DNA of 42,816 nucleotides from a virus, in IMG/VR virus record IMGVR_UViG_3300045988_147588, positions 1 to 42,816 of that record; one strand, 5' to 3'. The translations under genes and the position numbers were made by a program. The notes under the pieces are model-generated. The model searched no databases and had not been told where the DNA came from. It was given only the letters and a program-made list of their open reading frames with translations. Positions 5,267-42,650 of this stretch are shown here, piece by piece. The first letter of the stretch is position 1, and each line of letters starts with the position of its first letter.

Positions 5267-5293
5267 TATCCTCTCAGAAATAAGTTACAGTTC

Positions 5294-6163
5294 TTATTTC
5301 TCAAAATCAGTAAATATACTAGTTTGTCCAAACCTATCAATACCATTAATTCTATTTGTTGCTATTTTCTGGTATTCTTCATTGATTTCAAATCCTATAA
5401 AATTTCTTCCTGTTTCTTTGCAAGCAACACAAGTTGTTCCACTTCCGCAAAATGCATCCAATACAATATCGTTTGGTTGCGTAGCATGAAGTATATGCTT
5501 TTCAACGAAATCCAACGGCTTAATTGTCGGATGTATGTATTTCTTTTTATCTTCAGTATTGGTAGAAGAAATATAATATGAGCGTTTTAAATCCATACCA
5601 TCATTCAATCTTCTTGCTCCTTTTTCTCTGAAGAAAAGACAATATTCTGTATCACTCAACCACGTATTGTTTGTTTTTGGAATCGGATTTGTTTTATGCC
5701 ACGTTAATATATTGAAGTTGCAGTCTTTCTTATTGCAGAAATAATCAATTGTATATGGAATCTGCGCTTTAGATAACCATATATATATGTATATTTCTTT
5801 TTCTACTCTGCAAAATTCATCATATATAGAATAATCAATTCCTGTATCAATACCCACAAGATTCTTTTTTTGCACAAGTCTGTTGCATTCTTGTTTATGC
5901 TTTTCCTTTTCGTATTCGCCAGTTGTTTCTTCATACAATTGTTTTTCTTTTTTAAATGCTATTTCTAAATTGTATTTTCTATTTCTAATTCCAAACGCAC
6001 CACCGTCACCAGCAGAAGCAAATTGATATGGAAGATCAACATAAATTAAATCAATGCTCTTGTCAGGTATATTCTTTATCAGTTCATAAGCATTTCCGCA
6101 TATAACTGTATTTAAATTTTCCTCAATAAAACTGCCCATTTTCTCCTTGAACATAAGAAGCAT
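5294..6163 (-). CDS. Beta-class N6A/N4C DNA methyltransferase (N6_N4_Mtase type)
   Basis: Motif IV-like VDLPY near the N-terminus. HPTIKP...VLDAFCGSGTT (motif I) near the C-terminus. Start may be an internal ATG. Confidence 0.8.
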   Translation of the reverse strand: MLLMFKEKMGSFIEENLNTVICGNAYELIKNIPDKSIDLIYVDLPYQFASAGDGGAFGIRNRKYNLEIAFKKEKQLYEETTGEYEKEKHKQECNRLVQKKNLVGIDTGIDYSIYDEFCRVEKEIYIYIWLSKAQIPYTIDYFCNKKDCNFNILTWHKTNPIPKTNNTWLSDTEYCLFFREKGARRLNDGMDLKRSYYISSTNTEDKKKYIHPTIKPLDFVEKHILHATQPNDIVLDAFCGSGTTCVACKETGRNFIGFEINEEYQKIATNRINGIDRFGQTSIFTDFEK

Positions 6164-6181
6164 ATCTTGTGTTCCATCTTG

Positions 6182-6864
6182 TTAAATCAGATAAGTTTTT
6201 ATAAATCTTCTTGCATAGTCTTTTGAAATCATACTTCTTTGAACTTTTCTTGTTTTTCCATCTTCATCTTTGGCATATGAAATTCTTTTTTTTGGATGAA
6301 TAATCATTGGTTCATCCATAATAATATTTTCTTTAGGTTCAAAGTTAACAAAGAAGTATTGTGTAGATTTTTCATAGTAATCACCATTTTCATGCCTGTT
6401 TTTATCAATAACTTTAGGCTTTATGGCCCAGTACTTAATCAAGTAATGAGTTGATGAATATGGATTTTCTATGACTAAACGAAGCCCCCCCGTAAAGCTA
6501 CAATCGTGAGCATTGTTACAAATTCATACATATCATGCAGTTCCTTATGCATTTTCATATCTAACTGGAGCTTTTCTATATCATCATAATTTTTCATCTG
6601 GAAGGCAGTTCCTCTGAAATGCAGCTGAATTTGTTCTTCAAATCTAATGCAGGGAAAGAAAGCTAAAATCAAATCATCCTTTTTAATACTGTCGAATATT
6701 GAATCACGATAACAGTACGCCTTTTCTATTTCATCAAACAAATCAATCACATAATCTGTTTCACTGAAATCATTAGCAATATCATAATCGTATGCTTCAT
6801 ATCCAAGTTTTCTGAATTCATTTTTGAATGTTCCCGACTGTTCAAACATGCAATGAACTTTCAT
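6182..6864 (-). pseudogene. C5-cytosine-methyltransferase-like gene split by a G7 tract (ORFs 6475..6864 and 6182..6442)
   Basis: CMFEQSGTF (motif I-like) and FFPC (motif IV-like) in the upstream ORF. One extra G joins the ORFs and creates LVIENP (motif VI-like). The downstream ORF has a TTG start and no SD. Confidence 0.6.
6485..6491 (-). repeat. G7 homopolymer (C7 on the + strand) at the frameshift point
   Basis: Read directly. Unusual in this AT-rich genome. Confidence 0.95.
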
Positions 6865-7007
6865 ATTCTCTCCTTTAATCCATGCAACCGATGTATAGTT
6901 ATGTTGCATGGTTCTAATTTCGTAAAATCCAAGATAACCGTTTATTTATGCGGTTATCCTAGATTGTGCTTTTTTCTTGTGCAACATAATTTGATTTGTT
7001 GCAACGC
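6865..7007 (-). promoter_or_regulatory. Leader/regulatory module copy A (TGCAACA palindromes + terminator hairpin)
   Basis: Hairpins at 6980-7003 (TGCAACA/TGTTGCA), 6933-6958 (GATAACCG/CGGTTATC + T-run on the minus strand) and 6880-6911 (CATGCAAC/GTTGCATG). Homologous module at 11320-11465. Confidence 0.6.
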
Positions 7008-25002: not shown

Positions 25003-25317
25003 TTATTCAAATTCAGCTTTAATAATATCTAATCCTGTTATACCAACAATAGACCACTTTACACCTTTTTTAGCTTGGTAAACTTTCATACCAGTTCCTG
25101 CTCCATAAGCTCCAGTATTATTCTTAACATCAAGAATACTTGTTAATCCGCTTGCTGTAATATTAACTTGCCATGTATTAATAGCAACTATGATGTAGCA
25201 GTCTTTTTCGGGTGTTTCAGTATAAGTTTTATTGTTGTCTCCATTAAAGGCTATCAAGGAAGTAAATTTCAATTTAGATACCCCCCCCGATTTCCGTACA
25301 ATTAAACAATTTCCCAT
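25003..25317 (-). CDS. Small tail-distal paralog 3 (104 aa) with G8 tract in codons 10-13
   Basis: MGNCLIVRKSGG N-terminus shared with the two upstream genes. AAAGGAG SD. Confidence 0.7.
   Translation of the reverse strand: MGNCLIVRKSGGVSKLKFTSLIAFNGDNNKTYTETPEKDCYIIVAINTWQVNITASGLTSILDVKNNTGAYGAGTGMKVYQAKKGVKWSIVGITGLDIIKAEFE
25281..25288 (-). repeat. G8 homopolymer inside the 5' end of 25003..25317
   Basis: Read directly: tcg ggg ggg gta. Confidence 0.95.
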
Positions 25318-25334
25318 CTTTTCTCCTTTGTTAT

Positions 25335-25676
25335 TTATAAAATTCCAATCAATATTATTGAACCTTGGTGTCCTGTTCTTCCTACATCAAATACAGTTCC
25401 TTTTGGAACATTTTCATAGTAATAATGATACCAAGAAAATATTTGCCCCCATGTATCGTTATACCCTGAGCTAATCTTTACAGCCTCGATACTAGGTGTT
25501 GTTGTAGTTTCCCATGAGCCACCATTTTGACCATTCAAAATAACATACACTCTTTTGTAATCTTTCTCTGTCGTTGCCTTTAACGTGGTTCCTTGAGAAT
25601 TACCGAATGTAACATATTTTGTAGCGATAATTTCGCTTCCACCGCCACCTTTTCTTGTTATCATGCAATTGCTCAT
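25335..25676 (-). CDS. Small tail-distal paralog 2 (113 aa)
   Basis: ATG at 25676 gives MSNCMITRKGGGG. Ends in ILIGIL. Confidence 0.7.
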   Translation of the reverse strand: MSNCMITRKGGGGSEIIATKYVTFGNSQGTTLKATTEKDYKRVYVILNGQNGGSWETTTTPSIEAVKISSGYNDTWGQIFSWYHYYYENVPKGTVFDVGRTGHQGSIILIGIL

Positions 25677-25725
25677 TCCAACACCTTCTTTCTGAAGATG
25701 TTTTTTAGGTAAGAAATACACTTAG

Positions 25726-26094
25726 TTATTCCCCCCCCGAGAGAATTCCGATGATTAGAACGTGCCCCCAACCGTTTGAAGCACCACTCCAAGAAATCGA
25801 ATGCCCTTTTTTAGCACTACCATATACATTAGTTCCTGTTACGTAATCGTTATCTTTACCAATACTGCCGTTATATCCCCAATCTCCTTTAGCTGCACTA
25901 GCTAATTCTTGCAATCCGTTTACATTGCATGAAGGTATTCCAGCTTGAGTTCTTTTCCCATCCACACTTCTTGTAACAACTATTGCCACATAGTCTTTTT
26001 GAAGAGTAATAGAACCACTGCCACCACTTTCTGCAAGCTTTTCTCCTGTCAATTTAGAAGAGCCGCCTTTTCTTGTAATTAAAGCATTTGCCAT
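25726..26094 (-). CDS. Small tail-distal paralog 1 (122 aa) with G8 tract in the last codons
   Basis: MANALITRKGGSS N-terminus. Ends in LIIGIL-SGGE, with SGGE encoded by the G8 tract. Confidence 0.7.
   Translation of the reverse strand: MANALITRKGGSSKLTGEKLAESGGSGSITLQKDYVAIVVTRSVDGKRTQAGIPSCNVNGLQELASAAKGDWGYNGSIGKDNDYVTGTNVYGSAKKGHSISWSGASNGWGHVLIIGILSGGE
25731..25738 (-). repeat. G8 homopolymer at the 3' end of 25726..26094
   Basis: Read directly: tcg ggg ggg gaa taa. Confidence 0.95.
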
Positions 26095-42516: not shown

Positions 42517-42650
42517 CTGGAACGCGTTCCAACTTTCAAAAATTATAATTTTTTTTATTTTTTAGGTGCTTTTCGCGCACATGTGCGACCCTGGCAGCTT
42601 TGTCGAGACCCCCACGCCGTTCCCCCCAATATACCCGGGGGTTAGTTGTG
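42517..42650. other. GC-rich island upstream of HNH/terS: cos-site candidate with palindromes
   Basis: TGGAACGCGTTCCA (42517-42530) and CGCACATGTGCG (about 42575-42587) palindromes. C5/C6/G5 runs at 42608-42640. An HNH-TerS-TerL layout is typical of cos phages. Confidence 0.45.

Follow-up and report, generated by a model that had tools for sequence, protein, structure and literature searches.

Reversible ON/OFF switching by repeat slippage within the open reading frame (ORF) of a methyltransferase is familiar from bacteria, both in the phasevarions and in the poly-G-controlled restriction-modification genes of Campylobacter and Helicobacter. These bacterial phase-variable methyltransferases are chromosomal, are mostly of the Type I/III or IIG mod kind, and have a partner restriction activity or a regulon. 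The gene described here, in contrast, is an orphan, phage-borne, minimal C5-like enzyme. It lies on the minus strand of the IMG/VR virus record IMGVR_UViG_3300045988_147588, whose 42,816 nucleotides (nt; positions 1 to 42,816 of the record) were analysed in full and are referred to as the window. A run of seven G residues (G7) splits this C5-methyltransferase-like gene, and we consider it probable that this poly-G run acts as a contingency locus for phage DNA modification, with the gene OFF in the window.

In coliphage T2, an A-run in agt, a gene for DNA glucosylation, switches the modification off and on by ±1 base (Gomez, Barrick & Waters, bioRxiv 2025, PMC12633550). Reversion of agt was ~1000x more frequent than that of a point mutant, and each of the two states is favoured under one of two opposed defences, TgvAB, which attacks modified DNA, and McrA/BC, which attacks unmodified DNA (PMC12633550). 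Like the window gene, agt carries a homopolymer in a phage DNA-modification gene. On the other hand, the T2 run consists of A and lies in the glucosyltransferase gene of a virulent coliphage, whereas the run in the window consists of G and its C5-methyltransferase-like gene belongs to temperate gut phages. Rates and phenotypes have been measured for T2, while the window gene is known from population genomics alone.

Hypermutable poly-G tracts that generate sub-populations are reported from receptor-binding genes of the Fletchervirus phages of Campylobacter (Sorensen et al., Cell Rep 2021, as cited in PMC12823448 and PMC12633550). Going by these secondary accounts, the Fletchervirus runs are G7-G11 in A+T-rich genomes and are resembled by two further runs in the tail region of the window (25281-88 and 25731-38), but they lie in receptor-binding proteins of virulent Campylobacter phages and not in a methyltransferase. 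A homopolymer tract in the methylase of Bordetella phage BPP-1 is mentioned in PMC12633550, by whose account it received no further study. Liu and colleagues (J Bacteriol 2004) are reported to have described the BPP-1 run as a frameshift hot spot, a single-phage observation. The BPP-1 gene is like the present one a phage-borne DNA methylase with poly-G, but of another methylase family and from a phage of another host phylum.

Repeat-controlled methyltransferases and phage contingency loci are therefore already known, and the window gene adds a further case. The literature searched, whose coverage was incomplete, yielded no account of a poly-G switch, either for the present methyltransferase family or for methyltransferases of gut phages. 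What is added is the family-wide recurrence of runs at multiple sites, the finding that OFF alleles are abundant in metagenomes of the human gut, and a cultured Bacteroides system. Orphan methyltransferases of phages are usually read as fixed anti-restriction armour, and this common, barely annotated family (>2600 homologues) appears to be switched by slippage.

Tract, reading frame and gene start

The features of the split gene, with lengths in amino acids (aa), are as follows.

6485..6491, minus strand (C7 on the plus strand): poly-G tract G7, which sets the frame; G8 is ON, G7 and G9 are OFF
6475..6864, minus strand: 5' part of the methyltransferase-like gene, 129 aa, from ATG 6864 to a premature TAG
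6846-6826, minus strand: motif I-like FEQSGTF, in the 5' part
6660-6649, minus strand: motif IV-like FFPC, in the 5' part
6182..6484, minus strand: 3' part of the gene, shifted to frame -1 with respect to the 5' part and open to TAA 6184-6182
6469-6461, minus strand: motif VI-like ENP, in the 3' part
6868..6876, minus strand: Shine-Dalgarno sequence AAAGGAGAG, 3 nt upstream of ATG 6864
6907..6909, minus strand: upstream in-frame ATG, giving a 242-aa ORF when fused and a 144-aa ORF as is

The original prediction was that the G7 tract splits the gene and that one extra G rejoins the two ORFs. The sequence is as it described, and the frame logic held when recomputed. The minus strand reads gct tta cgg ggg ggc ttc gtt tag with a G run of exactly seven, which leads to the premature TAG at 6477-6475, 10 nt past the run, and limits the ORF from ATG 6864 to 129 codons. 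With one more G (context ...ALRGGLRLVIENPYSSTHYLIKYW...) the reading becomes ...RGGLRLVIENPYSSTHYLIKYW... and is stop-free through to TAA 6184-6182, while the removal of one G (G6) does not restore the frame. The G9 allele meets a stop 25 codons downstream of the run. Both OFF forms, G7 and G9, are without motif VI and the entire C-terminal half. The heptamer GGGGGGG occurs at three places in the window (33% G+C), all on the minus strand, against a mean of 0.21 in dinucleotide shuffles, none of 100 shuffles being as high; the tract exceeds chance expectation in the window.

The single 242-aa ORF that had been proposed does exist, from ATG 6909 with G8, but a 227-aa product from ATG 6864 is likelier, because ATG 6864 has the Shine-Dalgarno sequence and matches the starts of the homologues. 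These begin at the equivalent methionine (MKxHCLFEQSGTF). The true product is thus likely to be the 227-aa form, judging by these sequence signals. The upstream ATG was chosen by gene callers for two of the cluster members listed below (P0122 and P0123), but it is probably not the start in use.

The same arrangement could in principle be read as recoding, in which a -1 ribosomal frameshift on G_GGG_GGC, or slippage of RNA polymerase, would yield both the 129-aa and the 227-aa products. The sequence G GGG GGC does fit the X_XXY_YYZ pattern, a -1 shift yields exactly the G8 protein, and some leaky slippage on such runs is plausible. However, close relatives are in frame with G8, a G9 allele could be decoded only by a +1 event, the predicted folding of the next 90 nt does not exceed that of shuffled sequences (z = +0.34), and the out-of-frame arrangement is not conserved in the family. 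Recoding is accordingly very improbable as an explanation of the split.

Run lengths among close relatives and across the gene family

The 90%-identity protein cluster of the gene has 113 members and contains intact, G7 and G9 classes. The intact class reads ...ALRGGLRLVIENP... and comprises P0001, P0123, P0126, P0127 and P0130, with ON lengths of 227, 235 or 242 aa. The closest full-length relative, P0001, is 99% identical and is found on three metagenomic contigs, with ~97.5% DNA identity and G8 at the same place. The G7 class ends in ...ALRGGFV* and is made up of P0121, P0122 (the window), P0128, P0129 and P0133, the last three representing three other backgrounds on eight further contigs. 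The exact 129-aa product of the window (P0121) recurs in other assemblies. The G9 class (P0124 and P0125) continues as ...RGGASFSH... and ends in ...ALRGGASFSHRKSIFFN.LLD*. Run lengths of 7, 8 and 9 were confirmed in the DNA of 40 contigs, with relatives distributed at the same site as follows.

G8 at the same site: L001-3, L097-107 and L109
G7 at the same site: L084-86 and L115-117
G9 at the same site: L087-96 and L110-114

When the run is normalised, seven gene haplotypes up to 5% apart are obtained, and all three lengths are present in each of the two sub-clades of the gene. Haplotype 4 comprises 15 contigs whose 684 nt are identical, and of these ten have G8 and five G9. The contigs were drawn from different samples, in Hadza cohorts (assemblies ERZ4560159, ERZ4560474, ERZ4561073 and ERZ4561078) and others of the human gut (among them the ERZ27287xxx series and ERR7738xxx). 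Setting the run to 8 gives an intact 227-aa ORF in all 25 OFF contigs that are long enough. The OFF state is therefore reversible in principle, there being no second lesion. A sister cluster, 77% identical, has a run at the same codons, with four ON and six OFF members that end in ...ALRGG* or ...ALRGGVKTSN*, while four control clusters without the run have almost no truncated members. About half of the listed members of the closest clusters are OFF. By megablast the region had no match among GenBank phages, and an exact-pattern scan of IMG/VR and GTDB genomes for the tract and its 3' flank gave none either; a gapped version of the tract pattern found one contig in the JGI metagenomes, with G8. 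The comparison of orthologues bears out the variability that had been proposed, with G7, G8 and G9 circulating in many assemblies and on several backgrounds.

The simplest alternative is a homopolymer error of sequencing or assembly, in which case the phage in the sample really has G8 and an intact gene. Three other contigs have the exact G7 haplotype of the window, and each is 100.000% identical to it, over 16.9, 9.5 and 3.9 kb. One of them, the SPAdes contig L084, has a coverage of only ~3.9 (3.87), so that all four may rest on the same few reads, and assemblers do struggle at such runs, as at the scaffold gap by a G9 run in L125. Against an error, the G7 of the window was obtained in four assembly pipelines (JGI, ENA SPAdes, ENA scaffold and Logan); it is reproducible across assemblers, though perhaps not across independent reads. 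G7 also occurs on the three other backgrounds and G9 in >20 contigs, and random miscalls would not put a third to half of the contigs out of frame. The pattern is unlike random homopolymer miscalls, with shared haplotypes, several backgrounds, OFF alleles that are otherwise intact, and almost no truncated members in the control clusters. An assembly error is possible in the window itself and would leave the wider family pattern unaffected; as the explanation of the window's G7, it is quite unlikely.

Similar frameshifts in genomes of plaque-purified Bacteroides phages also argue against an error. Among GenBank phages, homologues were confined to the B40-8 group of Bacteroides phages, where they are 43% identical. 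This group (L126-L136) has a fourth hot spot for runs, near residue 200 (gene nt ~600), with the following states.

B40-8: interrupted run GGGTGGGG, ON, 237 aa
BF10P2: G7, ON, 242 aa
vB_BfrS_23 and UZM3: G5, ON, 242 aa
BF8P1, BF10P1 and BF10P3: G10, OFF, 218 aa
BF766P1: G8, OFF, 215 aa

Four of the 11 Bacteroides fragilis phage isolate genomes are thus frameshifted at the run, and the shortened ORFs are annotated as hypothetical proteins in the deposited records. The gene is also present in pieces within one phage in two gut-virome entries of BFVD, ctLeh52 (106 + 59 aa) and ct43U4 (120 + 86 aa). The cultured Bacteroides fragilis phages, with both ON and OFF states, are a ready experimental system.

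For the wider family, 80 IMG/VR loci with 50-60% identical homologues, all of them intact, were combined with close relatives to give 82 genes. A run of G7, G8, G9 or G11 is present in 36 of the 82, with G always on the coding strand, at a density of 0.63 per kb in the gene, ~23x the value of 0.027 per kb for the flanking phage DNA (445 kb). The runs are located at residues 46-48 (EI[RE]GGY), 50-53 (AYxGG), ~60-63 and 124-127 (RGG before ENP, the site in the window). In a structural model of the protein these hot spots are helix ends or loops that precede beta strands, and they are sequence-variable in the alignment. The window's own run covers codons 124-126 (Arg-Gly-Gly) at the end of a long helix, before the strand that bears ENP. 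Gly-Gly is encoded as GGG-GGG in 42 of 59 pairs, against 1.1 expected, while an isolated Gly is GGG in just 13.6% of cases. Interrupted forms such as CGG TGG GGG (Arg-Trp-Gly) occur beside CGG GGG GGG, and therefore the amino acids themselves are not what is conserved. A neighbour-joining tree requires at least 16 gains or losses of the run. By this count the enrichment signal is not confined to one clade of the tree.

Of the 12 runs in the flanks, at least seven fall in other DNA methyltransferase genes of the N6/N4 type. Runs outside the family lie in DPPY or DNPPF methyltransferase genes at L034 1908 and 2113, L073 6552 and 6575, L049 10, L057 2299, L033 3799 and L072 1185, and L073 has G8 and G10 runs in an apparently frameshifted methylase. 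Several families of methyltransferases carried by phages of the gut and rumen may come under poly-G control.

These family-wide data also bear on a non-adaptive reading, namely that the gene is dispensable, that runs arise by drift or mutation bias, and that a frameshift is ordinary gene loss. This would be consistent with about half of the listed cluster members being OFF, with the wide spread and apparent stability of one G9 allele, with the growth of cultured phages that have the gene OFF, and with the exchange of the gene as a cassette between unrelated backbones. On the other hand, ordinary loss does not account for the absence of a second lesion in 25 of 25 OFF contigs, nor does mutation bias fit the ~23x density of runs in the gene relative to its flanks, the use of the rare GGG codon in 42 of 59 Gly-Gly pairs, or the placement of runs at a few tolerant loop positions with at least 16 gains or losses. 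The same-site run in clusters 77% identical, both with ON and OFF members, and the location of at least seven of 12 flank runs in other DNA methyltransferase genes argue in the same direction. A neutral hot spot is thus unlikely.

The original prediction left two alternatives, a sequencing error and a genuine slipped-strand switch. Of these, the switch is favoured by the recurrence of G7, G8 and G9, the lack of any other lesion in OFF alleles and the family-wide enrichment; on this comparison of sequences, slippage is most likely the correct choice over sequencing error. Several points nevertheless weigh against the switch. The tract lengths are those of assembled contigs and deposited genomes. 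The P values of the enrichment are overstated, as related genes were counted as independent, which the tree count partly answers. One G9 protein is shared by 16 contigs from several studies, so some OFF alleles look stable, and a stable G9 allele fits slow switching or simple loss as well as fast phase variation. The window and its three identical contigs may all come from one low-coverage (~4x) sample, probably SRR1761699 / SAMN03283272. Runs of G7-G9 are also short for very high slippage rates in mismatch-repair-proficient hosts.

In the proposed mechanism, slipped-strand mispairing during phage or prophage replication would change the run by one base. G8 is the ON state, and G7 and G9 are OFF, with a product cut before motif VI. 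In the ON state, methylated DNA would be shielded from host restriction enzymes that cut unmodified sites, while in the OFF state unmethylated DNA might escape methylation-dependent defences and be cheaper for the lysogen. The run would be retained since lineages could hedge between methylated and unmethylated DNA. If the switch is adaptive, gut phages would be hedging between two kinds of host, those that cut unmethylated DNA and those that cut methylated DNA. A phage methylome deduced from just one assembly would then be unreliable, and 'split' or 'hypothetical' virome genes at poly-G runs should not be dismissed as errors or pseudogenes. A role of the run as a G-quadruplex was considered separately and dismissed by reasoning, as a single G7-G9 run cannot form one.

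The encoded protein

Residues 1-223 of the repaired protein are covered, in one stretch that spans the junction, by phrog_757, 'DNA methyltransferase' (E 1.1e-23). This was its sole methyltransferase match in profile searches of Pfam, NCBIfam, PDB sequences and PHROGs. A search of 5.8 billion proteins gave 2636 homologues, and each of the 120 that were listed is a single ORF (220-265 aa) and not two genes, in keeping with a joined protein. In 45 aligned homologues, F7-E-Q-S-G-T-F13, F69-F-P-C72 and E133-N-P135 are invariant.

An AlphaFold2 model of the repaired protein, built on the 45-homologue alignment, has a mean pLDDT of 88.7 and a pTM of 0.87. The C-terminal 60 residues are of lower confidence, with a pLDDT of 61-65 for residues 191-210. 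The structure prediction of the fused protein recovered the expected fold. The top 50 Foldseek matches in the PDB are all C5-cytosine DNA methyltransferases (M.HaeIII at E 1.9e-5, DNMT3A/B, M.HhaI and DNMT1), with probability 1.00, and the matches among the viral models of BFVD include annotated cytosine methylases and small phage methylases. The C5-methyltransferase-like identity given in the original prediction is thus upheld by the phrog_757 match, the fold and the invariant motifs.

The classical C5 methyltransferases (M.HhaI, M.HaeIII and DNMT3; PF00145) are both the best and the sole structural matches, and they share with the present family an invariant motif IV Pro-Cys and motif VI Glu-Asn-x. 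The differences are considerable. M.HhaI has 327 aa, and the window protein, at 227 aa, falls short of it by ~100 aa. Between motifs IV and VI the window protein has an additional long helix (residues 95-126), and FEQSGTF stands in place of the FxGxG of motif I. In an hhalign alignment with M.HhaI, FEQSGTF falls on FxGxG (FAGLGGF) and FFPC on Pro-Cys, in register, at a probability of 7% and with an M.HhaI sequence entered by hand. The first Gly of motif I is replaced in FEQSGTF. The motif readings therefore stand in part: all three motifs are invariant in the 45 homologues and the Pro-Cys is aligned with that of M.HhaI, but the alignment of motif I is weak. From its order and the fold, ENP may be taken as the equivalent of the motif VI ENV.

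Other results count against assignment to the classical family. The TM-scores to solved C5 methyltransferases are modest, at 0.35-0.45. No Pfam family, PF00145 included, matches the repaired protein at an E value of 1 or below, nor does any NCBIfam family, and the PDB sequences retrieved by profile with E up to 10 include no C5 methyltransferase. Within the 227-aa protein neither a target-recognition domain nor motifs IX/X were found by recognition, with no motif-level mapping made. The gene is best described as C5-methyltransferase-like, a description supported by the fold and motifs, and not as a proven member of PF00145. Cytosine-C5 DNA methylation by the enzyme would be the activity predicted from the model.

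Genome context and other poly-G tracts

The window looks like the complete genome of a temperate siphophage from the human gut, as its gene content includes an integrase, a Rep/DnaC-like protein, MazG, the large terminase (TerL), a portal, a ClpP-type protease, a capsid and a tape-measure protein. The hosts are likely Bacillota. The nearest cultured relative by large terminase is a Clostridium scindens phage at 37% identity, and Amedibacillus dolichus genomes contain a 58%-identical homologue. A search of genome contigs with P0001 found one distant metagenome-assembled genome alone (Clostridia bacterium). The methyltransferase-like gene (window 6137-6867) is ~94.5% identical in L087, L107 and L109, while the flanks are without any alignment. 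By this comparison the gene appears to behave as a mobile cassette that is swapped between temperate phage backbones.

A second methyltransferase gene lies directly downstream.

5294..6163, minus strand: intact N6/N4-type DNA methyltransferase (DPPY), PF01555 at E 2.3e-30

The corresponding stretch of the window (5268-6136) has no counterpart in L001, L097, L098 and L099. The breakpoint is within the shared 5' end ATGCTTCTTATGTTCAAGGAG, and therefore the downstream gene starts with identical codons. The methylase that corresponds to it in L088, L089 and L092 has 610 aa and a faint LAGLIDADG match, which suggests that these proteins carry an inserted homing-endonuclease or intein-like segment.

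Two further poly-G tracts of the window are located in genes of the tail region.

25281..25288, minus strand: second tract, G8, in codons 10-13 of the 104-aa gene 25003..25317 (MGNCLIVRKSGGVSK...)
25731..25738, minus strand: third tract, G8, two codons before the stop of the 122-aa paralogue 25726..26094 (MANALITRKGGSSK...)

The tract at 25281..25288 is G7 (L118-124) or G9 (L125) in relatives, with altered N-termini. For the G7 relatives of the 104-aa gene, callers place the start at a TTG of a different frame (MFNCTEIGGVSK..., in at least 23 contigs), and the G9 relative begins with MYGNRGGVSK.... With this tract the phage seems to have a second locus that varies in length. The tract at 25731..25738 is G7, G8 or G9 in relatives, and its length decides whether an 18-aa C-terminal extension is present. 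The 122-aa gene accordingly ends in ...ILSGGE*, GGY* or GGGN*, or in the tail ...ILSGGVLSSLLNRIANIFRKEVLA* (50 contigs), the window having the short form. The two tract-bearing paralogues share the N-terminus M[GA]N[CA]LI[TV]RK.GG. These tail-region tracts are related to the methyltransferase switch but are not part of it.

Three adjacent small genes (25003..26094, minus strand) share the N-terminus M[GAS]N[CA][LM]I[TV]RK.GG. They lie downstream of the 1552-aa tape measure, with the large tail genes on one side and the lysis genes on the other, and may be alternative tail-tip or fibre modules. L125 has a scaffold gap, a stretch of N at ~2785-2803, immediately next to the G9 run of its tail-region gene. 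Assemblers break at poly-G tracts, and caution is needed in reading tract lengths from assemblies.

It is an evenly balanced proposition that temperate and virulent phages of Bacillota and Bacteroides in the human gut and rumen use poly-G runs as a general, multi-locus 'phasome', which would take in the repeatedly gained and lost runs of the orphan C5-methyltransferase-like family as well as those in nearby N6/N4 methyltransferase genes and in small tail-tip genes. If so, a single lineage continuously makes progeny that differ in DNA methylation and probably in their adsorption apparatus. Across the gut virome, this would amount to bet-hedging in both epigenetic state and host range, visible in public metagenomes.

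Near the contig end, a G+C-rich patch CCCCCACGCCGTTCCCCCCAATATACCCGGGGG is present at 42609-42641, upstream of the small and large terminase genes, in a genome of 33% G+C. This patch could be a packaging (cos/pac) site.

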